IMG/VR virus record: IMGVR_UViG_2693429621_000002
Span: 1 to 8,160 of that record
Direction: 5' to 3' (one strand)
Length of the DNA: 8,160 nucleotides
DNA from: a virus
Taxonomy: Duplodnaviria; Heunggongvirae; Uroviricota; Caudoviricetes
In this document: in pieces, positions 1 to 8,160 of the stretch
Layout of the letters: every line of letters starts with the position of its first letter
How positions within the stretch are numbered: the stretch's first letter is position 1
Translations under genes and position numbers: made by a program
Notes under the pieces: model-generated
The model's input: only the letters and a program-made list of their open reading frames with translations
The model's database searches: none
What the model was told of the DNA's origin: nothing

Positions 1-5
1 AACAA

Positions 6-236
6 ATGGTAGTGTCCGCTATTGCCAGTACACCTCATCCATCACCGAAAAAAATTGGCTTTTACACCATTGGCGATAAAAGCATTTACCTGTATGACCT
101 ACGCCGCATGGATGAAATCATGGAGGCTCTTGATAATCGTTCGTCGATGGATTGGTGTGTTGCTGTTCATGATATGAATGCAGGGTTTGATGAAAAGATT
201 TTGTTCCCCTCATCAGTTGAAAGCACTGCGGGTTAA
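6..236 (+). CDS. hypothetical prophage protein (76 aa from first ATG; may extend 5' beyond the window)
   Basis: Open frame from ATG at 6 to TAA at 234-236; the codon before the ATG in this frame is not a stop, so the true start may lie upstream of the window. No recognisable motif. Confidence 0.4.
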   Translation: MVVSAIASTPHPSPKKIGFYTIGDKSIYLYDLRRMDEIMEALDNRSSMDWCVAVHDMNAGFDEKILFPSSVESTAG

Positions 237-246
237 GGAGTAACAC

Positions 247-414
247 ATGACCACTATTACCAAAGAACGTATTGAATTGTTCATTAAAAACCCGCTTGAA
301 AACGGGCTTACCCGTGGTGAACAAATGGAACTGGCACGGATTGCGCTGGCATCGCTGGAAGCAGAGCCGGTTGTGTTCTGGTTTGAAAAATATCAAGAAG
401 GGGCTACGGCATGA
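247..414 (+). CDS. hypothetical small protein (55 aa), N-terminal paralog of the next gene
   Basis: Strong SD AAGGAG 7 nt upstream of ATG at 247; stop TGA overlaps the next start (ATGA at 411-414). Below the 60-aa cutoff of the ORF track. Shares MTT(I/F)T(K/R)E... and ...(A/V)SL(E/A)AEP motifs with the 411-755 product. Confidence 0.55.
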
Positions 415-755
415 CGACTTTTACCAGAGAGCAGTTAATAGCTCACGCAGAGGAGACTATTGAAGCACAGAGACTGTGCATACCGGGCACAATCGACCAT
501 GACATCATCCGCACATATAAGATGGATATTGCTGTTCTGGAAATCGCACTGGTATCGCTGGCAGCAGAGCCAGCCGGTAAATTGCATGAATACAAACCAG
601 TGGGATATCAGCGTCTGGTCGATGAGTTAACCATGCTGGTAAAGCAGTTAACCTGGCAACTGAGGAAAGCGAAGCCAGACTGCAAATTACCGGATAAGGC
701 GATGAGTTATCTGGAGCGGAACGGACTGATAAGCGTGGAGGATATTTTACGATGA
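411..755 (+). CDS. hypothetical protein (114 aa), paralog of the 247-414 product
   Basis: ORF in track; start overlaps upstream stop and its own stop overlaps the next start (ATGA at 752-755), indicating translational coupling. Internal similarity to the preceding small protein. Confidence 0.6.
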
Positions 756-835
756 CCTGGCCTGAAGCATTAACAACGGTAGGAATTGCGATGGCGGTGG
801 CGCTGGTGGTGTATTCGATTTGCCGCTGGGGATAA
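752..835 (+). CDS. putative 27-aa hydrophobic membrane micro-protein ([27 protein letters not shown])
   Basis: ATG overlaps the stop of the upstream gene (ATGA); single predicted transmembrane helix; ends TAA 833-835. Too short for the ORF track. Could be a chance ORF. Confidence 0.35.
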
Positions 836-841
836 AAACGG

Positions 842-870
842 TTTGCGGGAAAAGGAGAGTTAAGTAGAAT
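842..870 (+). promoter_or_regulatory. candidate sigma70 promoter for hok mRNA (-35 TTTGCG, 17-bp spacer, -10 TAGAAT)
   Basis: Hexamers read directly; the predicted transcript start (about 877) precedes a GCTTGAGGCT motif that I recall from the 5' end of plasmid R1 hok mRNA. Confidence 0.3.
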
Positions 871-1046
871 TGCAGCGGGTGCTTGAGGCTATCTGTCTCA
901 GGCATGAACACCAAAAGGCAGATAGAGAAAAGCCCCAGTTAACATTACGCGTCCGGCAAGACGCTTAACATTAATCTGAGGCTCAATCTATGAACGGCAA
1001 ATCTAGGTTAGCCTCTTACGTGCCGAAAGGCAAGGAGAAGCAGGCT

Positions 1047-1202
1047 ATGAAGCAGCAAAAGGCGATGTTAATCGCCCTGATCGTCATCTGTTTAACCGTC
1101 ATAGTGACGGCACTGGTAACGAGGAAAGACCTCTGCGAGGTACGAATTCGAACCGGCCAGACGGAGGTCGCTGTCTTCACAGCTTACGAACCTGAGGAGT
1201 AA
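1047..1202 (+). CDS. hokD: Hok/Gef-family type I toxin, HokD/RelF-like (51 aa)
   Basis: Translation MKQQKAMLIALIVICLTVIVTALVTRKDLCEVRIRTGQTEVAVFTAYEPEE matches my recollection of E. coli HokD (RelF). The ORF track shows an in-frame 70-aa extension from ATG 990, which may be a mok-like upstream frame or an ORF-finder artefact. Confidence 0.85.
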   Translation: MKQQKAMLIALIVICLTVIVTALVTRKDLCEVRIRTGQTEVAVFTAYEPEE

Positions 1203-1271
1203 GAGACCAGGCGGGGGAGAAATCCCTCGCCACCTCTGATGGGTCAGGCATCCTCAATGCACCCACACTTA

Positions 1272-1300
1272 ACCCGCTTCGGCGGGTTTTTGTTTTTATT
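1272..1300 (+). terminator. rho-independent terminator ending the hok transcript
   Basis: Hairpin ACCCGC-TTCG-GCGGGT followed by TTTTTGTTTTTATTTT. Confidence 0.6.
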
Positions 1301-1310
1301 TTCAACGCGT

Positions 1311-1340
1311 TTGAAGTTTTAGATGGTGCCGGAATAGAAT
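1311..1340 (+). promoter_or_regulatory. candidate sigma70 promoter (-35 TTGAAG, 18-bp spacer, -10 TAGAAT)
   Basis: Hexamers read directly, about 85 nt upstream of the 1423 start codon. Confidence 0.3.
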
Positions 1341-1422
1341 CAAAAATACTTAAGTAGCGCGCAGGGAGAAGAGGGATGGACCCCGAACAGGGGAGTGCTA
1401 TTTATCTGGAAGGATTCTGTTG

Positions 1423-1704
1423 ATGAAAATCGAAGAATTACGTGAAATTTTTAGTGAAGATGGCCTCTATACTGTGCGCGTTGAGAATGGCGCTATTGTC
1501 AGCCACTGCCTTCCAGACTACACAATTCTGATAATTCAGCCGTCTTTGCCAGCAGGCACGGGCGGCGCTCTCACGCATTTAAATCTGATTGGTACCAGCA
1601 TCCCCCATGCACTGAAGAACAGGCCGAATGGCTCATTCAGTGTTACCGCAGGCGCGGATGCGAGGTTAAAAAAGCCCTTAGCCTCGACTACCGTCACTGG
1701 ATAA
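1423..1704 (+). CDS. hypothetical prophage protein (93 aa) in the position occupied by rem in Qin-like prophages
   Basis: ATG at 1423 preceded by GGAAGGA; the ORF track starts 3 nt earlier at TTG. Lies between hok and the DUF968 gene as in Qin. Identity with Rem not verified. Confidence 0.5.
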   Translation: MKIEELREIFSEDGLYTVRVENGAIVSHCLPDYTILIIQPSLPAGTGGALTHLNLIGTSIPHALKNRPNGSFSVTAGADARLKKPLASTTVTG

Positions 1705-1779
1705 TCTCCGTCAGGCTCCCTTACTCCGAACGGCCAACGCGTCCGTCCCGCACATTCCAGCAACGGATCTGGAGGTAAT

Positions 1780-2838
1780 GTGCGGGTATTACTTCGACCT
1801 GTTCTGGTACCGGAACTCGGTCTGGTTATCGTTAAGCCAGGCCGTGAATCAATGTCAGCATTCCATAACGGCAGAATACTGGTGGAGCCGGAACCAAAAA
1901 GCATGCGTAATCTGCCGTCCGGGGTCGTTCCTGCCGCTCGCCAGCCGCTGGTGGAAGACAAAACATTGCTGCCGTTTTTCAGTAACGCACGGGTGATTCG
2001 TGCTGCTGGTGGTGCTGGTGCATTGTCTGACTGGCTGTTGCGCCATATTAAATCCTGCCAGTGGCCACACGGCGATTATCATCACAGCGAAACCGTCATT
2101 CACCGTTATGGTACCGGCGCAATGGTGTTGTGCTGGCACTGCGACAACCAGCTGCGTGACCAGACATCCGAATCACTCGAGCAACTTGCTCATCAAAACC
2201 TGTCAGCATGGATGATTGACGTCATCGGTCACGCAATAAGCGGTACGCAGGAGCGTGAATTATCTCTGGCTGAATTATCCTGGTGGGCGGTCCGCAATCA
2301 GGTGGCGGACGCGCTACCGGAAGCGGTATTACGTCGTTCGCTGGGGTTGCGTGCGGAAAAAATTCGCTCTGTGTACAGTGAAAGCGACATCATACCGGGA
2401 GAGCAGACAGCCACCAGCATACTGAAGCAGCGCACAAAAAATATTGCGTTACTGCCTCACGTCCACCAGCAACAGAACCCACCACAGGAAAAGACGGTGG
2501 TCAGCATTGCCGTTGATCCGGAGTCACCGGCTCAGTATCTCCAGCGCCAGAAATCACAACGGGAAGAGATGCCTGTATACACGCGCTGGGTAAAAACGCA
2601 GAAATGCATGACGTGTGGCAATCAGGCAGATGATCCGCATCACATCATTGGTCATGGACTGGGAGGGATGGGAACAAAGGCTGATGATTTGTTTGTTATT
2701 CCGTTATGCCGTAAATGCCGTAACGAACTACATGCCGGAGTAAAAGATTTTGAAGAGAAACACGGCAGTCAGCTGTTGTTGCTGATTCGTTTTTTAATGC
2801 ACGCGAGAAATTCGGGTGTTCTGAAGTGGAAAGCATAA
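1780..2838 (+). CDS. DUF968 / YdfU-like prophage protein with C-terminal Cys/His cluster (352 aa)
   Basis: Long ORF from GTG 1780 (SD GGAGG at 1771-1775); the true start may be internal. C-terminus has CMTCGN...DPHHIIGH...PLCRKCRNELH, an HNH/zinc-finger-like arrangement. Stop TAA abuts the rusA start. Confidence 0.65.
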   Translation: MRVLLRPVLVPELGLVIVKPGRESMSAFHNGRILVEPEPKSMRNLPSGVVPAARQPLVEDKTLLPFFSNARVIRAAGGAGALSDWLLRHIKSCQWPHGDYHHSETVIHRYGTGAMVLCWHCDNQLRDQTSESLEQLAHQNLSAWMIDVIGHAISGTQERELSLAELSWWAVRNQVADALPEAVLRRSLGLRAEKIRSVYSESDIIPGEQTATSILKQRTKNIALLPHVHQQQNPPQEKTVVSIAVDPESPAQYLQRQKSQREEMPVYTRWVKTQKCMTCGNQADDPHHIIGHGLGGMGTKADDLFVIPLCRKCRNELHAGVKDFEEKHGSQLLLLIRFLMHARNSGVLKWKA

Positions 2839-3219
2839 ATGACCGAGCGCATAGAATTTGTTTTACCTTACCCGCCGACGGTGAACACTTACTGGCGTCG
2901 TCGTGGCAGCACATATTTTGTATCAAAAGCCGGGGAGCGTTATCGCCGGGCAGTGGCGCTTATTGTTCGCCAGCAGCGGCTGAAATTAAGCCTGTCCGGA
3001 AGGTTGGCAATAAAAATTATTGCAGAACCACCGGATAAGCGCCGCCGTGACCTGGACAATATTCTGAAAGCGCCGCTGGATGCGCTGACGCATGCGGGGT
3101 TGCTAATGGACGATGAGCAGTTTGATGAAATCAATATCGTTCGTGGTCAGCCAGTATCTGGTGGACGTCTGGGGGTGAAGATTTACCCCATAATGCATGA
3201 AGAGCAGGTCAAAAAATGA
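2839..3219 (+). CDS. rusA: RusA-family Holliday junction resolvase (126 aa)
   Basis: Conserved RusA blocks LPYPPTVNTYWRRRG, DKRRRDLDNILKAPLDALTHAGL and GGRLGVKI resemble E. coli RusA; SD GGAAAG upstream; stop overlaps the next start (ATGA 3216-3219). Confidence 0.85.
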   Translation: MTERIEFVLPYPPTVNTYWRRRGSTYFVSKAGERYRRAVALIVRQQRLKLSLSGRLAIKIIAEPPDKRRRDLDNILKAPLDALTHAGLLMDDEQFDEINIVRGQPVSGGRLGVKIYPIMHEEQVKK

Positions 3220-4043
3220 AACTGGAAGATTTACCGAAATACTACTCCCCAAAATCCCCCGGCCTGACTGATGCATCGGCCTCAACGTCGAAAGATGCGC
3301 TGAGTATCACTGATGTGATGGCCGCGCAGGGCATGACACAGAATCGGGCTGAGATGGGGGTTTCTGCGTTCCTTGGGAAAATGGGCATTAGTATGAATGA
3401 CAGAGAGCGGGCAACAGAATTGCTGACAGAATATGCACTCAGTCGGTGTGATCGCGTGGCGGCGTTAAGAAAACTCCCGGCAGAAATAAAACCGGCAGTG
3501 ATGCGTATTATGGCTTCGTATGCGTTTGAAGATTATGCCCGTAGCGCGGCGAGCAAAAAACAGTGCCCCTGCTGTCACGGAAAAAAATTTATTGAAAGCG
3601 AGGTTTTTACAAACAAGATCCAGTATCCGGATGGTAAGCCGCCGGTATGGGCAAAGTGTACGAAAGGTGTGTATCCGTCTTACTGGGAAGAATGGAAAAA
3701 AGTCAGGGAGGTGGTAAAAGTTGCCTGTCCGGAGTGTGGCGGAAAGGGTGAGGTTTCCACCGCCTGTAAGGATTGCCGTGGGCGTGGTGTCGCCATTCAT
3801 CGTGAAGAGTCGGTAAAACGTGGTATGCCTGTTATCAGAGACTGCCAGCGTTGTGGTGGTCGTGGCTATGAAAGACTACCATCAACGGAGGCATTTAATG
3901 CTATATGCGAGGTGACAAACCAGATAACACGCGCGTCATGGGAAAAAACAGTTAAGAAATTCTATGATGCGCTGGTGACTCGGTTTGATATTGAAGAAGC
4001 ATGGGCTGAGCGGCAGTTAAAAAAGGTAACTAGGTNAGGTTGA
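3216..4043 (+). CDS. Q-type late antiterminator, QuuQ-like, with zinc-finger motifs (about 274 aa)
   Basis: Repeated CxxC motifs (CPCCHGKKF, CPECGGKG...CKDCRGRG, CQRCGGRG); lies immediately upstream of a promoter plus terminator pair typical of PR'/tR'. The 3' end contains an N at 4036; the duplicate copy shows the true C-terminus ...KKVTR. Confidence 0.7.
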   Translation: MKLEDLPKYYSPKSPGLTDASASTSKDALSITDVMAAQGMTQNRAEMGVSAFLGKMGISMNDRERATELLTEYALSRCDRVAALRKLPAEIKPAVMRIMASYAFEDYARSAASKKQCPCCHGKKFIESEVFTNKIQYPDGKPPVWAKCTKGVYPSYWEEWKKVREVVKVACPECGGKGEVSTACKDCRGRGVAIHREESVKRGMPVIRDCQRCGGRGYERLPSTEAFNAICEVTNQITRASWEKTVKKFYDALVTRFDIEEAWAERQLKKVTRXG

Positions 4044-4128
4044 TTTTTCCGGAATCTGTGGTAAATTCGTCATAACTATGGGCGTTTTATGCCTGACGTT
4101 AGAAGAGTTTCTACAACCCGCCGCCGAG
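3629..4128. repeat. copy 1 of duplicated segment (Q 3' end, PR'-like promoter, start of tR' hairpin) ending at the scaffold gap
   Basis: Matches 4150-4651 except for three substitutions (3962 C/T, 3980 T/C, 4076 T/G) and a small indel around the N at 4036. A copy of the promoter sits at about 4040-4067. Confidence 0.9.
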
Positions 4129-4149
4129 NNNNNNNNNNNNNNNNNNNNN
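4129..4149. other. scaffold gap (21 N)
   Basis: Run of N characters read directly. Confidence 0.97.
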
Positions 4150-4558
4150 GGATGGTAAGCCGCCGGTATGGGCAAAGTGTACGAAAGGTGTGTATCCGTC
4201 TTACTGGGAAGAATGGAAAAAAGTCAGGGAGGTGGTAAAAGTTGCCTGTCCGGAGTGTGGCGGAAAGGGTGAGGTTTCCACCGCCTGTAAGGATTGCCGT
4301 GGGCGTGGTGTCGCCATTCATCGTGAAGAGTCGGTAAAACGTGGTATGCCTGTTATCAGAGACTGCCAGCGTTGTGGTGGTCGTGGCTATGAAAGACTAC
4401 CATCAACGGAGGCATTTAATGCTATATGCGAGGTGACAAACCAGATAACACGCGCGTCATGGGAAAAAACAGTTAAGAAATTTTATGATGCGCTGGTGAC
4501 CCGGTTTGATATTGAAGAAGCATGGGCTGAGCGGCAGTTAAAAAAGGTAACTAGGTAA
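4150..4558 (+). pseudogene. duplicated 3' portion of the Q antiterminator ORF (partial, begins at gap edge); probably contig overlap rather than a separate gene
   Basis: In-frame continuation of Q codons ending ...QLKKVTR-TAA at 4556-4558. The ORF track reports only the part from the internal ATG at 4190. Confidence 0.6.
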
Positions 4559-4563
4559 CAAGG

Positions 4564-4591
4564 TTGATTTTTCCGGAATCTGTGGTAAATT
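4564..4591 (+). promoter_or_regulatory. PR'-like late promoter (-35 TTGATT, 16-bp spacer, -10 TAAATT), presumed Q-utilisation region
   Basis: Hexamers read directly, immediately 3' of the Q gene, with a terminator about 60 nt downstream; this is the lambdoid PR'/qut/tR' arrangement. Confidence 0.55.
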
Positions 4592-4638
4592 CGTCATAAC
4601 GATGGGCGTTTTATGCCTGACGTTAGAAGAGTTTCTAC

Positions 4639-4663
4639 AACCCGCCGCCGAGCGGGTTTTTTA
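4639..4663 (+). terminator. tR'-like rho-independent terminator
   Basis: Hairpin AACCCGC-CGCCGA-GCGGGTT followed by TTTTTTAT. Confidence 0.65.
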
Positions 4664-4782
4664 TGACTGAAATCGCGTCAGTACAGTAAACGCGCTGGTG
4701 GCGGTGAATACCTGTCTTTCAGCTTGCTGGCTTTTTCGACAAGAGTTATTGGTGTGTCACGTTAACCGGAAAAGGAAAAGAC

Positions 4783-4980
4783 ATGCTAAAACAGCAGGAT
4801 ATGACAGAAACCGCCAGAGTGGTGTTTAATGAATTAAGCGTTACCGAACCGGCGACAGTCGGGGAGATAGCGCAGAATACTTACCTTTCACGCGAACGCT
4901 GCCAGTTAATACTGACCCAGCTGGTTATGGCGGGTCTGGCAGACTATCAGTTCGGTTGTTACAGACGCCTTCCGCAGTGA
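4783..4980 (+). CDS. small putative winged-helix/HTH DNA-binding protein (65 aa)
   Basis: SD AAAGGAAAAG 6 nt before ATG; the segment PATVGEIAQNTYLSRERCQLILTQLVMAGLA looks like a helix-turn-helix. An alternative start is ATG 4801. Confidence 0.5.
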   Translation: MLKQQDMTETARVVFNELSVTEPATVGEIAQNTYLSRERCQLILTQLVMAGLADYQFGCYRRLPQ

Positions 4981-4994
4981 AGGCTTTTTTATTT
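4967..4994 (+). terminator. rho-independent terminator overlapping the stop codon of the 4783-4980 ORF
   Basis: Hairpin GCCTTC-CGCAGT-GAAGGC followed by TTTTTTATTT. Confidence 0.5.
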
Positions 4995-5007
4995 GTGGTA
5001 AATGGGC

Positions 5008-5038
5008 GGCTGGTGGGTGTTAGGGGCACCCACCAGCC
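5008..5038 (+). promoter_or_regulatory. perfect 12-bp inverted repeat hairpin (GGCTGGTGGGTG-ttagggg-CACCCACCAGCC) upstream of the methyltransferase gene
   Basis: Read directly; not followed by a T-run. A near-palindrome CTGCTTTGCGCAAAAGCAG lies at 5080-5098, about 35 nt before the methyltransferase start. Confidence 0.4.
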
Positions 5039-5130
5039 ATCTGCTCATGCGTTGGGTTCACAAGCAAACCTCAGGCCCACTGCTTTGCGCAAAAGCAGAA
5101 TGAGCCTATCAGAGACAGGCTTAATGATCC

Positions 5131-6189
5131 ATGCTTAATACTGTAAAAATATCCAGTTGTGAGTTAATCAACGCCGACTGCCTGGAATTTATCCGGTCGT
5201 TACCCGAAAATTCTGTTGACCTGATAGTCACGGACCCGCCGTACTTTAAAGTGAAGCCTGAGGGCTGGGATAACCAGTGGAAGGGCGACGATGATTACCT
5301 GAAGTGGCTGGACCAGTGTCTGGCGCAGTTCTGGCGGGTGCTGAAACCTGCCGGAAGTCTTTACCTGTTCTGTGGTCATCGCCTGGCATCTGATATCGAA
5401 ATCATGATGCGTGAACGCTTCAGTGTGCTGAACCATATTATCTGGGCGAAGCCGTCCGGACGCTGGAACGGATGCAACAAGGAAAGCCTGCGGGCGTATT
5501 TCCCCGCCACAGAGCGCATTCTGTTCGCGGAACATTATCAGGGGCCGTATCGTCCGAAAGATGCCGGGTATGCGGCGAAGGGCAGTGCACTGAAACAGCA
5601 TGTGATGGCCCCGCTGATTTCTTACTTTCGTGATGCGCGAGCTGCCCTGGGGATAACGGCAAAACAGATTGCAGATGCCACAGGAAAGAAAAACATGGTG
5701 TCGCACTGGTTCAGTGCCGGTCAGTGGCAGTTGCCGAATGAAAGCGATTATCTGAAATTACAGGCGCTGTTTGCCCGGGTGGCAGAAGAGAAGCATCGGC
5801 GTGGTGAACTGGAAAAGCTCCACCACCAGCTGGTGGATACGTATACCTCACTGAACCGGCAGTATGCGGAGCTGCTGAGTGAATATAAACATCTGCGGCG
5901 GTATTTTGGCGTGACGGTGCAGGTGCCGTATACCGATGTGTGGACGCATAAACCGGTGCAGTTCTATCCCGGGAAACATCCGTGCGAAAAACCGGCAGAA
6001 ATGCTGCAGCAGATAATCAGCGCTAGCAGTCGTCCGGGTGACCTGATTGCAGATTTTTTCATGGGGTTGGGTTCGACAGTGAAAGCGGCACTGGCGCTCG
6101 GGCGTCGTGCAATTGGCGTTGAGCTGGAGACTGAACGTTTTGAGCAGACGGTTCGGGAAGTACAGGATTTAGTCAGCCAGAACGGATGA
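5131..6189 (+). CDS. beta-class DNA amino-methyltransferase, probably N6-adenine, orphan (352 aa)
   Basis: N-terminal motif IV LIVTDPPYF and C-terminal motif I DFFMGLGST. This order (IV before I) is the beta-class arrangement, and DPPY favours N6-adenine. No restriction endonuclease ORF is adjacent. Confidence 0.85.
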   Translation: MLNTVKISSCELINADCLEFIRSLPENSVDLIVTDPPYFKVKPEGWDNQWKGDDDYLKWLDQCLAQFWRVLKPAGSLYLFCGHRLASDIEIMMRERFSVLNHIIWAKPSGRWNGCNKESLRAYFPATERILFAEHYQGPYRPKDAGYAAKGSALKQHVMAPLISYFRDARAALGITAKQIADATGKKNMVSHWFSAGQWQLPNESDYLKLQALFARVAEEKHRRGELEKLHHQLVDTYTSLNRQYAELLSEYKHLRRYFGVTVQVPYTDVWTHKPVQFYPGKHPCEKPAEMLQQIISASSRPGDLIADFFMGLGSTVKAALALGRRAIGVELETERFEQTVREVQDLVSQNG

Positions 6190-6229
6190 TATTGAAGAAT
6201 TAATTACGCGTCGTTATTATGCGGCTCCC

Positions 6230-6305
6230 GGCCCTTTAGCTCAGTGGTGAGAGCGAGCGACTCATAATCGCCAGGTCGCTGGTTCAAATCCAGCAAGGGC
6301 CACCA
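6230..6305 (+). tRNA. ileZ: tRNA-Ile2 (anticodon CAU, lysidine type; ileX/ileZ-like), 76 nt with encoded CCA
   Basis: Manual cloverleaf: acceptor GGCCCTT/AAGGGCC, D-arm GCTC-AGTGGTGA-GAGC, anticodon loop CTCATAA, T-loop TTCAAAT. Closely resembles my recollection of E. coli ileX. Confidence 0.85.
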
Positions 6306-6312
6306 TCACATA

Positions 6313-6389
6313 CCGCCATTAGCTCATCAGGAAAGAGCGCCAGCCTTCGAAGCTGGCTGCGCGGGGTTCAAGTCCCCGATGGCGGTCCA
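6313..6389 (+). tRNA. argN: tRNA-Arg (anticodon UCG), 77 nt with encoded CCA
   Basis: Acceptor CCGCCAT/ATGGCGG, anticodon stem CCAGC/GCTGG, loop CTTCGAA, T-arm CGGGG-TTCAAGT-CCCCG, discriminator T, CCA. Confidence 0.8.
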
Positions 6390-6402
6390 TTATCTGCATC
6401 AT

Positions 6403-6479
6403 GCGTTGTTAGCTCAGCCGGACAGAGCAATTGCCTTCTAAGCAATCGGTCACTGGTTCGAATCCAGTACAGCGCGCCA
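6403..6479 (+). tRNA. argO: tRNA-Arg (anticodon UCU), 77 nt with encoded CCA
   Basis: Acceptor GCGTTGT/ACAGCGC (one G-U pair), anticodon stem ATTGC/GCAAT, loop CTTCTAA, T-loop TTCGAAT, discriminator G, CCA. Confidence 0.85.
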
Positions 6480-6616
6480 TATTCATTCTTCCAGATTCCT
6501 TCCGGCAGAGCCTTATACTGAAATATACCTGGCTCAGGATATTGTTGAAAATATTTTATGTTTGTCAAAAATAAAAGTTCTGTTAAGTATTGATTGAGTG
6601 TTTGTTATACGGTCTA

Positions 6617-6943
6617 ATGGTTTTTTCAGCATTAAATATTTATCATTCATATGGTGTGGGTAGAGTGAATATTGATGAGGCGTCGGGGTGTTTCATCCTT
6701 AGGCAGCGTATTGATATAGTCAATGCAGCACGAGCAAAGGCCTTCAGCCGTTTGACAGTTTTGTTCTGTACTCCTGATCGTCTTTCGGGAAGAGACGTTA
6801 TTATTCTGAATAGTGATGCTATACAGAGGGTTTGCGATGAGTTCATGGTTGCTAATTCAGAATTATTTGCTCTTGTTCAGGAGTACAACAGAATAGCCAG
6901 GACCTGTGGTATGGATGAACTTCGGATTACTCATCTGGGGTAG
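6617..6943 (+). CDS. hypothetical cargo protein (108 aa from first ATG; ORF track extends to TTG at 6590)
   Basis: Open frame of more than 100 codons in an AT-rich region; no clear SD. Arg codons are 6/11 AGA/AGG plus one CGA, and Ile includes 3 ATA, matching the adjacent tRNAs. No recognisable domain. Confidence 0.4.
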   Translation: MVFSALNIYHSYGVGRVNIDEASGCFILRQRIDIVNAARAKAFSRLTVLFCTPDRLSGRDVIILNSDAIQRVCDEFMVANSELFALVQEYNRIARTCGMDELRITHLG

Positions 6944-7023
6944 ATACATATCTGGATTATCACCTGTTACGGTAAAAAGTGATTGCTTACTGTTTTTGTG
7001 AATGGCATTGCAGCAGCCGGATA

Positions 7024-7110
7024 ATGTCAGTGCTGGCTGACGGTGTGCTGGTGGCGGGTGTGGTGGTTGTTGCTTTCCCGTTGCTGAAAAAGAAAACGCC
7101 AGACTGTTAG
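7024..7110 (+). CDS. possible 28-aa hydrophobic micro-protein (MSVLADGVLVAGVVVVAFPLLKKKTPDC)
   Basis: ATG with weak SD (GGA); one hydrophobic helix followed by KKK. Speculative; may be non-coding. Confidence 0.2.
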   Translation: MSVLADGVLVAGVVVVAFPLLKKKTPDC

Positions 7111-7335
7111 CCGGGTATCAGTTAGCGGGAGAAATTTTTAAATACTTCACAATTCAGGCGGTTGACTGTTGTCTGGTTTGCGGGGAGTTTGTTAAAAGAA
7201 ACTGGCATGGTGAATCCCCCTGTGCGGAGGGGCAATCAGCGAGTAGGTATATGGGATAATCGCGGATTCAGGTGCTGGTACTGAATTCACCGGGAGGCAC
7301 CCGGCACCATGCAATGGCACATAGCGCCACTCTCC

Positions 7336-7370
7336 AGCCCCTCTCCGGAGGGGCTGTTTATATTGATTTT
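7336..7370 (+). terminator. strong rho-independent terminator, + orientation
   Basis: Perfect 8-bp stem AGCCCCTC-tccg-GAGGGGCT followed by GTTTATATTGATTTT. Confidence 0.6.
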
Positions 7371-7387
7371 GTCAGATGTGAGTAAAC

Positions 7388-7421
7388 TCCTTATGGACTT
7401 TGTTGTTTTAGTCCATAAGGA
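7388..7421. promoter_or_regulatory. perfect 12-bp inverted repeat (TCCTTATGGACT-ttgttgtttt-AGTCCATAAGGA) overlapping the stop codon of the minus-strand ORF
   Basis: Read directly; on the minus-strand mRNA the last 10 codons and the stop lie inside this hairpin. Confidence 0.4.
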
Positions 7422-7726
7422 CATATTTGCAGAGTGCAACGGTTATTAAAGCATTCATTCAATACGTTATCTGTATTTGTAGGGCATTCCTGGCTATTTT
7501 TGATTGAATTCCAGAATGTTTTATTGAATGGTACTACGTTGTAAATGGTTACAGGTAGCACTTTGTTATTGAGCATGATGCCTGTGTGAGTCAGTGTAAA
7601 TATACTTTCAGGAGGTAAGAAAGCATCCGATTGATACCAGATTATTAATTTTATTTTACTCCATATGACTGAAAAAGATATTCCGCATGATGGCTGGATA
7701 ACTGTATCAATCACAATCCACTTCAT
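7391..7726 (-). CDS. hypothetical cargo protein (111 aa), antisense to the phage late operon, Cys-containing C-terminus
   Basis: ATG at 7726 with SD AAGGA 7 nt upstream; 6 of 13 Ile codons are the rare ATA (read by the adjacent tRNA-Ile2). C-terminal [25 protein letters not shown] has four Cys. No recognisable domain. Confidence 0.6.
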
Positions 7727-7986
7727 TTAGTTTCCTTGTTTATGCCTTGCTGGTGATGTTCTGAAAAGTATAAATGATATTTTTGAATGTAAACCATAGA
7801 GCAGAATTATTTTTCTGATGTTGTTTATTGTTTATTTAAATGCAGGGTGGTTTATATCTCGTCTTGTAGTTTATCCATGCATATCTGCTTGATAATCAGG
7901 TTTTTATTTAAGGTATGGTTTTGTGTTTTTTCTGTATTACATGTCAGGTATTTTAAAGAATTATTTTTCAGATGGTGGAAAGAACC

Positions 7987-8160
7987 ATGGCATTTAAACA
8001 CTATGATGTTGTCAGGGCGGCGCCGCCGTCAGATCTTGCGGAAAAGCTGACACATAAACTGAAAGAGGGCTGGCAGCCGTTTGGTAGTCCGGTGGCCATA
8101 ACCCCTTATACCCTGAGGTGTACTGGCAATAGCGGACACTACCATTTGTTCTTTTTTTAA
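7987..8160 (+). CDS. small prophage protein (57 aa from ATG 7987; 62 aa from ATG 7972), tentatively DUF1737-like
   Basis: SD-like GGTGGAAAG before ATG 7987; stop TAA at 8158-8160 directly after a T7 homopolymer at the window edge. Similarity to the N-terminal domain of Stx-phage NanS-p-type esterases is from memory and unverified. Confidence 0.45.
   Translation: MAFKHYDVVRAAPPSDLAEKLTHKLKEGWQPFGSPVAITPYTLRCTGNSGHYHLFFF

Follow-up and report, generated by a model that had tools for sequence, protein, structure and literature searches.

What occupies the Shiga toxin position of a lambdoid prophage that carries no toxin? The question is raised by a stretch of 8,160 nt of caudoviricete DNA (IMG/VR record IMGVR_UViG_2693429621_000002; "the window"), in which three tRNA genes, the last ending at 6479 as ARAGORN confirms, are followed by about 1.5 kb of unusual composition (6480-7971). 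The initial annotation took this segment to be a single AT-rich island at the stx position, holding two convergent, unrecognised ORFs and plausibly an undescribed accessory function. Both ORFs are present, at 6617-6943 on the plus strand (hereafter ORF1) and at 7391-7726 on the minus strand. The segment as a whole, however, is very probably the iraL locus already described, the same as that in the potB prophage of UPEC CFT073, and consists of two independent moron cassettes that flank an STnc100-family sRNA gene and lie between the ileZ-argN-argO tRNA cluster and a remnant of a nanS-p esterase gene (Table 1). The region is largely known, and only the small ORF1 family in it is still unexplored.

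Table 1. Features of the tRNA cluster, the cargo slot and its right flank, in window coordinates
Feature	Position	Strand	Basis
tRNA, CAT anticodon (ileZ-type tRNA-Ile2)	6230..6305	+	ARAGORN; Rfam tRNA, 72.5 bits
tRNA-Arg (TCG), argN-type	6313..6389	+	ARAGORN, Rfam, 933W annotation
tRNA-Arg (TCT), argO-type; left anchor of cargo slot	6403..6479	+	ARAGORN, Rfam
Left cargo cassette, allelic to stx2AB of 933W	6488..7146	+	Pairwise blastn breakpoints; 933W and Nil3 annotation
ORF1, helical-hairpin protein	6590..6943	+	phrog_2873
DUF3927/TciB-like small membrane protein gene, 43 aa, 5'-truncated	6979..7110	+	Pfam PF13064, phrog_1470
STnc100-family sRNA gene (RF02076), including intrinsic terminator 7335-7362	7176..7365	+	cmscan
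Right cargo cassette, iraL and promoter region, AT-rich	7356..7985	-	blastn breakpoints
12-bp hairpin over iraL stop codon	7388..7421	-	RNA fold of 7430-7300, minus strand, z = -6.3
iraL CDS, 111 aa, RssB anti-adaptor	7391..7726	-	NCBIfam NF007393
iraL 5' UTR, transcription start 7759	7727..7759	-	Published 5'-RACE of CFT073 mRNA (PMC4045071)
AT-rich iraL promoter and upstream region	7760..7971	-	Sequence reading; 99.1% identical to CFT073
DUF1737 ORF, 62 aa; right anchor of slot	7972..8160	+	Pfam PF08410, 57.2 bits

Two cassettes around an sRNA gene

The correspondence with the CFT073 potB prophage is close. Window positions 6190-8116 align with it without gaps over 1927 nt at 98.3% identity, and only 11 positions differ within 6480-7971. 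The gene order Q, three tRNA genes, DUF3927, IraM-annotated gene and DUF1737 is identical in CFT073, which also shares ORF1, the DUF3927 stub, STnc100 and the iraL transcription start. The two prophages differ upstream: CFT073 has an IS200 between Q and the tRNA genes, where the window has genes for a DNA methyltransferase (5131-6189) and, before it, a small winged-helix protein (4783-4980), and its tRNA block is just 93% identical. The Q-to-tRNA order that was first read from this DNA therefore stands as regards its elements but not their direct adjacency. Apart from that extra methyltransferase after Q, the layout is that of the late region of Stx-converting phages: Q, ileZ-argN-argO, cargo slot, STnc100, DUF1737/nanS-p. 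The Q region of the window contains a run of N with a duplicated flank; the duplicated 3' end of Q (4036-4149) may be a scaffolding artefact. The CAT tRNA is labelled Met-CAT by ARAGORN; its homologue is annotated as tRNA-Ile in CFT073 (RefSeq) and as ileZ in the 933W record.

Comparison with the Stx2 phage 933W locates the toxin position within the segment. The two share the same flanks, with ileZ-argN-argO to the left, STnc100 in the middle and DUF1737/nanS-p to the right. Homology runs through the tRNA genes to 6487 and resumes at 7147, stx2AB lying between these points in 933W, and pairwise blastn places the left breakpoint against 933W, Nil3 and phi296 at 6487-6492. What 933W carries as stx2AB is thus replaced in the window by ORF1 and a tciB stub, and its AsxR-containing spacer by the iraL cassette; its STnc100 copy is only about 71% identical, and an Rfam scan found no AsxR-like RNA beside STnc100 in the window. 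The stx position assigned at the outset is accordingly correct for the left part of the segment alone. Two further relatives, Nil3 and vB_EcoP_phi296, have the same tRNA genes and STnc100 (100% identical over 180 nt in Nil3), but there STnc100 follows the tRNA genes almost directly and the stx slot holds no cargo; the empty site of Nil3, 23 nt long, is allelic to the left cassette. The window is 93% identical to JLK-2012 across the 3' part of tciB and the STnc100 region; JLK-2012 lacks ORF1, and the window lacks the TerB-domain gene of the tciA-tciB cassette.

The absence of toxin genes was borne out. The slot contains neither stxA nor stxB, the stx2AB segment of 933W has no counterpart in the window, and no ORF of the island matches a toxin family in Pfam. 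A PADLOC-DB v2 scan of ORF1, IraL and the DUF3927 protein returned no defence family, the sole PADLOC match (MTase_II) being to the methyltransferase upstream of the island.

Base composition likewise divides the segment. It is AT-rich overall, as had been noted (39.3% GC in 6480-7971, against 50.5% in 1-6479), but not uniformly so: GC content is 41% in 6480-7175, 55% in 7176-7365 and 32% in 7366-7971. The GC-rich block is the STnc100 gene, which matches the full covariance model (positions 1-206) at 132.4 bits against a gathering score of 47. A terminator scan found a hairpin at 7335-7356 followed by a T-run, so that the hairpin and strong terminator of the initial annotation are real and are reinterpreted as the 3' end of this sRNA gene. 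STnc100 occurs at the equivalent position in 933W, where it lies 75 nt downstream of stx2B, and in Nil3, phi296, JLK-2012, mEp460 and E. coli 042. The homologue in Stx2 phages, EcOnc27/sRNA103, is an expressed, Hfq-bound sRNA (PMC12711010); by analogy, the copy in the window may have a regulatory role, and it would be transcribed in the late direction and end at the strong terminator. The segment, then, comprises two small cargo cassettes separated by a conserved sRNA gene rather than a single island, and STnc100 forms the common boundary of a set of interchangeable cassettes: stx2AB, tciAB, ORF1, iraL and AsxR.

To the right, the slot is closed by the DUF1737 ORF, which represents the N-terminal part of a nanS-p-type esterase gene cut short; the esterase gene of 933W begins with homologous sequence, and the annotations of CFT073 and 042 list the ORF as a pseudogene. 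Among 5426 complete E. coli genomes, 1429 contain the iraL module, 1183 the ORF1 module and 863 the whole island. In 80 sampled prophage contigs, the linkage of ORF1, DUF3927 and STnc100 is retained in essentially all, and the iraL cassette is found in most, but not all, of those bearing ORF1.

IraL in the right cassette

The minus-strand ORF, initially regarded as unrecognised, encodes a protein of a characterised family. It scores 162 bits against NCBIfam NF007393 (cut-off 121) over residues 1-110, and 110 of its 111 residues are identical to those of CFT073 IraL (WP_000871291.1; 99.4% identity between the coding sequences), the single difference being S74L. It belongs to the IraL subtype, defined by at least 95% identity to CFT073 iraL together with a conserved promoter and transcription start. 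In CFT073 the gene was characterised in 2014 at this same locus: its product was shown to bind RssB and to stabilise RpoS during exponential growth, and its transcription start was mapped by 5'-RACE (Hryckowian et al. 2014, PMC4045071). The 5'-RACE sequence matches the window from 7759 to 7728 at 31 of 32 bases, with one mismatch. Putative promoter hexamers lie just upstream, a -10-like TATACT at 7772-7767 and TTTACA at 7793-7788, with a short, 15-nt spacer between them. At the other end of the gene, the hairpin over the stop codon is a candidate weak iraL terminator, being followed by no strong U-tract.

Similar comparisons can be extended to IraM of K-12 (YcgW/ElbA, b1160; PDB 8twd), a homologue in the same NCBIfam subfamily, which is 61% identical to IraL over 107 residues. 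In a sequence search, IraL residues 1-78, corresponding to the PmrD-like core of IraM, matched 8twd_A with E = 6.3e-31. The published RssB-contact residues of IraM (I4, I6, W22, K26 and I42; T13, C14, F18 and W30; I61, Y62, H63 and I64; P66) are largely retained: in an ungapped alignment, 11 of the 14 are identical and two are conservatively replaced, the changes being T13S, I64V and H63N. Like IraL, IraM stabilises RpoS by binding RssB. The settings of the two genes differ, in that iraM adjoins the e14 element and does not occupy a post-Q slot. According to published work, Mg2+ starvation induces IraM through PhoP, and the protein touches both domains of RssB; in two-hybrid assays IraL bound the N-terminal domain only, and it acts in exponential phase, under regulation reported to differ from that of K-12 iraM.

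RssB binding and a longer RpoS half-life are probably properties of the variant in the window as well, carried over from the CFT073 protein. The iraL strand opposes phage late transcription, and the gene would be read from its own promoter, starting at 7759, and therefore be expressed in the lysogen. IraL would then bind the response-regulator-like adaptor RssB, RpoS would therefore not be handed to ClpXP, and RpoS would accumulate in exponential phase as in CFT073, which may raise the general stress resistance of the host. A wholly silent island, which the initial annotation had named as a ground for rejecting its reading, is contradicted by CFT073 lysogens, in which iraL (c1429) is transcribed and regulated. 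The idea of an undescribed accessory function is thereby narrowed: the slot after Q and the tRNA genes of this lambdoid prophage does hold moron-type cargo, but the main cargo, iraL, is already characterised.

ORF1 and the left cassette

The plus-strand ORF remains without an assigned function, although it is not wholly unrecognised, since it matches phrog_2873 over the full length of the profile (residues 10-117 against positions 1-108 of 108; 233.9 bits). It has three candidate starts, TTG at 6590 (117 aa), ATG at 6617 (108 aa) and GTG at 6665 (92 aa), and its conserved core is 6665-6943. The promoter-like hexamers at 6545-6572, and the failure of PGAP to call the ORF in CFT073, 042 and sampled RefSeq genomes, would fit a non-coding 6480-6978 that provides DUF3927 and STnc100 with a leader or a regulatory region. 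That ORF1 is no gene at all is nevertheless very improbable, given the PHROG match and the manner in which it has diverged. Against a 57%-identical homologue, dN/dS is 0.27 and third codon positions carry an excess of the changes (43, compared with 25 and 23 at the other two positions); more distant homologues, at 21-40% identity, keep the length and the conserved residues and likewise lie after Q or ahead of the holin, and an AF2 model built with them is confident (pLDDT 88.7) and consists of two long helices. On these comparisons, ORF1 is taken to be a real gene under purifying selection, a conserved 92-aa gene of some 1200 complete genomes that the sampled RefSeq annotation omits and that is therefore invisible to expression studies relying on that annotation.

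The family to which ORF1 belongs is small, with 20 representatives among 1.84 billion proteins. Searches of Pfam, NCBIfam and PADLOC gave no match, no relative was found in the PDB, and fold searches gave generic matches only. A GapR/UPF0335 identity was considered and rejected, the profile-versus-PDB match having E = 0.054 and the fold searches lending no support. A tblastn search of 50,697 phage records matched mEp460_ev081 alone, and a profile search of genome contigs with an alignment of close homologues found ORF1 only in E. coli and in one probably mis-binned MAG. A search for the old locus tag c1428 gave no match.

The neighbour of ORF1 is a DUF3927 protein (PF13064, 95.6 bits against a threshold of 25; phrog_1470, E = 7.8e-13) that is incomplete at its N-terminus. 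Full-length TciB proteins have 50-54 aa and two hydrophobic segments; in an alignment, the 43-aa protein of the window lacks the first of these, and its N-terminus is unrelated to theirs. Nucleotide homology to the tciB of JLK-2012 begins at 7011, which corresponds to tciB codon 22. In four contigs representing two divergent contexts (L016-L019), an ORF1 homologue is followed by a TerB-like gene and a DUF3927 gene. Since distant prophages have the hairpin protein followed by TerB and full-length DUF3927 genes, the left cassette of the window seems to have arisen by deletion from a cassette of three genes, for hairpin protein, TerB-domain tciA-like protein and full-length DUF3927 protein. The pairing of ORF1 and DUF3927 is frequent but not universal: two contigs (L014 and L020) have an ORF1 homologue without the TerB/DUF3927 link, and in L005 and L014 the homologue is followed by small ORFs that have no match to DUF3927. 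A literature search for tciA and tciB retrieved only Trypanosoma papers.

Whether the reduced cassette still does anything is the point at which readings diverge. It is possible, if on the unlikely side, that tciA was lost in a deletion together with the 5' end of tciB, leaving a decaying remnant without present function, in which ORF1 and the stub hitch-hike with a successful prophage backbone. The loss of the first transmembrane segment from the DUF3927 protein would accord with such decay, as would the adjoining nanS-p gene, likewise a stub, and the three candidate starts of ORF1, none of which has a convincing Shine-Dalgarno sequence. Copies of ORF1 within E. coli are 95-100% identical, so that little can be read from their recent spread about selection in this lineage. 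Against decay, the deeper comparisons indicate purifying selection, the window, CFT073, 042 and mEp460 all have an intact ORF1, and, as described above, its linkage to DUF3927 and STnc100 is almost invariable.

The converse reading keeps an undescribed accessory function in the slot, now conceivable only for ORF1 with or without the DUF3927 peptide; ORF1 would then be a novel factor for host modulation or exclusion, driven by the late promoter as Stx is. We regard it as distinctly unlikely. In its favour, ORF1 is exactly allelic to stx2AB, is conserved by selection, and recurs after Q in distant prophages; its lack of Pfam, NCBIfam, PADLOC or PDB relatives, and its presence in so many genomes without annotation in any sampled RefSeq entry, would fit a function that has been overlooked. 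Against it, ORF1 is a plain two-helix hairpin with neither signal peptide nor enzymatic motif, its family is tiny, and its former partners in the ancestral cassette have here been lost or shortened, so that this copy may be an orphan.

What the hairpin protein might do can be put as a best guess: it could be a small cytoplasmic binding partner or regulator of a membrane-associated TerB/DUF3927 module, and its expression may depend, with low confidence, mainly on Q-dependent late read-through, as for stx. A bolder proposal is that ORF1 (6665-6943) is the founding, as yet unannotated member of a small prophage family of the post-Q "toxin slot" that works with TerB-domain (TciA-like) and DUF3927 (TciB-like) membrane proteins as a three-gene lysogenic-conversion module, for which envelope-stress tolerance, colicin tolerance and superinfection exclusion would be plausible roles, and that it has kept a function of its own in the iraL lineage after losing its partners. 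Taken as a whole, this proposal is improbable.

Cargo of the toxin slot in E. coli

For the most part, the outcome is a tidying of annotation. It gives iraL, whose location had been called a "genomic island", a precise place, in a lambdoid prophage cassette that adjoins the stx-allelic site. Roughly one complete E. coli genome in four has, in the slot occupied by Shiga toxin in EHEC phages, cargo that rewires the general stress response via IraL and RpoS.

Layout of the region

The window covers the part of a lambdoid E. coli prophage that regulates its late genes (table). The flagged segment has a GC content of 39.3%, compared with 50.5% for the rest, so that its initial description as AT-rich holds overall, but it falls into three blocks that differ strongly (6480-7175, 41%; 7176-7365, 55%; 7366-7971, 32%). 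Both ORFs named within it are present where they had been placed.

Features of the window
Feature	Position	Remarks
sok RNA	877-1052	Rfam sok, 112.4 bits; upstream of the DUF968, rusA and Q genes
ORF beside sok RNA	990-1202	equivalent place in E. coli 042 and CFT073 annotated hokD
DUF968 gene, rusA		between sok/ORF 990-1202 and Q
Q antiterminator	from 3216
Small winged-helix ORF	4783-4980	65 aa, phrog_331
N6/N4 DNA methyltransferase	5131-6189	352 aa; PADLOC MTase_II, 540 bits
Three tRNAs	6230-6479
Flagged segment	6480-7971
ORF1 (plus strand)	6590-6943
DUF3927 gene	6979-7110	Pfam, 95.6 bits; 43 aa only
STnc100 sRNA	7176-7365	RF02076, full length; 132.4 bits, gathering score 47 (cmscan)
iraL (minus strand)	7391-7726
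DUF1737 ORF	from 7972 (to 8160)	62 aa

The winged-helix and methyltransferase genes fill the interval between Q and the tRNAs, where CFT073 has an IS200 and 042 nothing, and the pair occurs in a minority of iraL prophages among IMG/VR contigs. With no nuclease seen, this is apparently an orphan methyltransferase. The plus strand has two terminator-like hairpins, each with a T-run (4639-4658 and 4967-4984), the former about 80 nt past the Q stop codon, where tR′ of a short PR′ leader RNA would be expected. Position 4036 is a single N and 4129-4149 a run of 21 Ns. About 500 bp, made up of the 3′ portion of Q and the beginning of the terminator hairpin that follows, flanks this run twice (3626-4128 and 4150-4664). 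Both copies align to one and the same CFT073 segment, and the doubling has apparently arisen in scaffolding or assembly and is no true duplication. At the other end, the DUF1737 region is in 933W the start of a 645-aa nanS-p-type esterase, and the esterase gene of the window is therefore a stub; its counterpart is carried as a pseudogene in the annotation of CFT073 and 042.

Two cassettes and the stx allele

The breakpoints in pairwise comparison are sharp: with 933W, homology extends through the tRNAs to 6487 and resumes at 7147. The interval corresponding to 6488-7146 is filled in 933W by stx2AB, whereas the flanks in Nil3 are separated by 23 nt and form an empty site; from these breakpoints, 6488-7146 is a true allele of stx2AB. 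The stx position initially assigned to the whole island thus applies to this part, but iraL lies past STnc100 in a second replacement, which runs from the STnc100 end (7356) to the DUF1737 gene (7985). The corresponding spacer is 262 bp in 933W, where it holds AsxR in minus-strand orientation, and 231 bp in phi296. The anti-sRNA AsxR of 933W (locus L015, 3696-3748, minus strand; RF02703, 88 bits) abuts the STnc100 3′ end, in the same slot and convergent arrangement as iraL in the window.

Linkage was checked in 80 IMG/VR prophage contigs with ORF1. The order ORF1-DUF3927-STnc100 is kept wherever the contig extends far enough, and iraL is next in most, but is absent in at least 14 that reach 3 kb downstream. 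Of 5426 complete E. coli genomes, 1429 have the iraL module, 1183 have the ORF1 module and 863 have both. Breakpoints and counts together replace the single island with two independently assorting cassettes.

ORF1, DUF3927 and STnc100

ORF1 matches phrog_2873, a PHROG of unknown function, end to end (233.9 bits). It belongs to a very small family (23 clusters among 5.8 billion proteins; 20 representatives among 1.84 billion), which includes members 21-63% identical that share a length of 91-95 aa, a uniformity which points to a conserved core starting at GTG 6665. ORF1 is taken as a real gene on the evidence of codon evolution, because comparison with a 57%-identical homolog gives a dN/dS of 0.27 and an excess of third-position changes. 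No RefSeq annotation of ORF1 was found in CFT073, 042 or 12 genomes sampled across the ranking, and it is therefore absent from the CFT073 expression table examined. AlphaFold with a diverse alignment confidently models two 32-residue antiparallel helices (pLDDT 88.7), for which fold searches returned nothing beyond generic helical hairpins.

ORF1 homologs in other prophages are also placed after Q or before holin. In two divergent contexts the genes after the homolog encode a TerB-domain protein and a DUF3927 protein of full length, a pair annotated in JLK-2012 as tciA-tciB. The DUF3927 protein of the window lacks the first hydrophobic segment of its 50-54-aa relatives, and nucleotide homology to tciB begins only at codon 22; the simplest reading is that a deletion took out a tciA-like gene and the tciB 5′ end. 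Conceivably, though with low confidence, ORF1 could serve the TerB/DUF3927 module as a small protein-binding partner, and there is a small residual chance that it is functionally new. ORF1, the tciB stub and STnc100 would be co-oriented with PR′ late transcription and, like stx2, may be strongly expressed on induction.

The post-Q region of mEp460_ev081 (L002, 4998-5426) and that of prophage locus L005 (1810-2238) each encode a 142-aa protein that scores about 80 bits for the TolA C-terminal domain; these proteins differ from the TerB-domain TciA of JLK-2012, although both are about 142 aa and adjoin STnc100. In two different prophage settings (L005, 2933-3658; contigs L016/L017, 3142-3870), the ORF1 homolog directly follows the gene for an AraC/HTH_18-type regulator of about 241 aa, through which the prophage may act on host stress or virulence genes.

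The "strong terminator" of the initial annotation exists (7335-7356 plus T-run) but belongs to STnc100 as its 3′ end. STnc100, regarded as a relative of PasD, is in the equivalent place in 933W, phi296, Nil3, JLK-2012, mEp460 and E. coli 042. In 933W it starts 75 nt past stx2B, which has also been reported independently, and the O157 copy overlaps EcOnc27/sRNA103, an Hfq-bound sRNA (PMC12711010). A partial "hypothetical protein" pseudogene that RefSeq places inside the STnc100 gene (7195-7320, minus strand; L001 7716-7841, L013 13269-13394) is probably spurious. Two STnc100 copies occur in L003 (4165-4358, 4634-4822) and L005 (2344-2556, 5650-5839), and likewise in L023 and L043. The paired copies bracket hypothetical ORFs in one prophage and an AraC-type regulator, an IS3 and an ORF1 homolog in another; this differing cargo suggests that STnc100 is a homologous linker where post-Q cassettes exchange.

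iraL and the known locus

The minus-strand ORF, initially considered unrecognised, is iraL, an anti-adaptor gene already described experimentally. Its product exceeds the NCBIfam NF007393 cut-off of 121 (162 bits), is 61% identical to K-12 IraM, aligns through residues 1-78 with the solved core of IraM (PDB 8twd), and is identical to the CFT073 protein at 110/111 positions. The CFT073 gene has been characterised as iraL; IraL interacts with RssB, with which it also co-purifies, and raises RpoS level and stability in exponential phase (PMC4045071). Of the reported RssB-contact residues of IraM, 11/14 are identical here and two conservatively replaced. The 32-nt 5′-RACE sequence of iraL mRNA matches 7759-7728 with one mismatch, which puts the minus-strand transcription start at 7759. 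Lack of transcription, which would have told against the accessory function first proposed, is not what is seen: iraL (c1429) is transcribed in CFT073, with an increase of 1.6 log2-fold after a shift to 37 C and raised expression in a fur mutant.

The present analysis identifies the gene, its promoter region and its start site, and establishes the conservation of contact residues and the cassette boundaries. As known for the almost identical locus elsewhere, iraL would be driven in the lysogen by its own promoter, and IraL would bind RssB and protect RpoS from ClpXP. Late read-through would be expected to oppose iraL, whose AT-rich block appears to resemble DNA of the kind silenced by H-NS.

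Window positions 6190-8116 align without gaps to the potB prophage of CFT073 (98.3% identity), with only 11 differences within 6480-7971. Megablast finds the 1492-bp segment, over 80% or more of its length, in 863/5426 complete E. coli genomes, annotated as [quoted passage not shown]. This is the iraL locus as previously described, and both STnc100 and DUF3927 exist as curated families. The initial statement that toxin genes are missing stands, as none of the three island proteins scanned matched a toxin-family or defence model. In the literature searched, neither the exact placement of iraL beside the stx-allelic site, nor the role of STnc100 as a cassette boundary, nor the unannotated ORF1 family was found; these three points are modest additions to a known locus.
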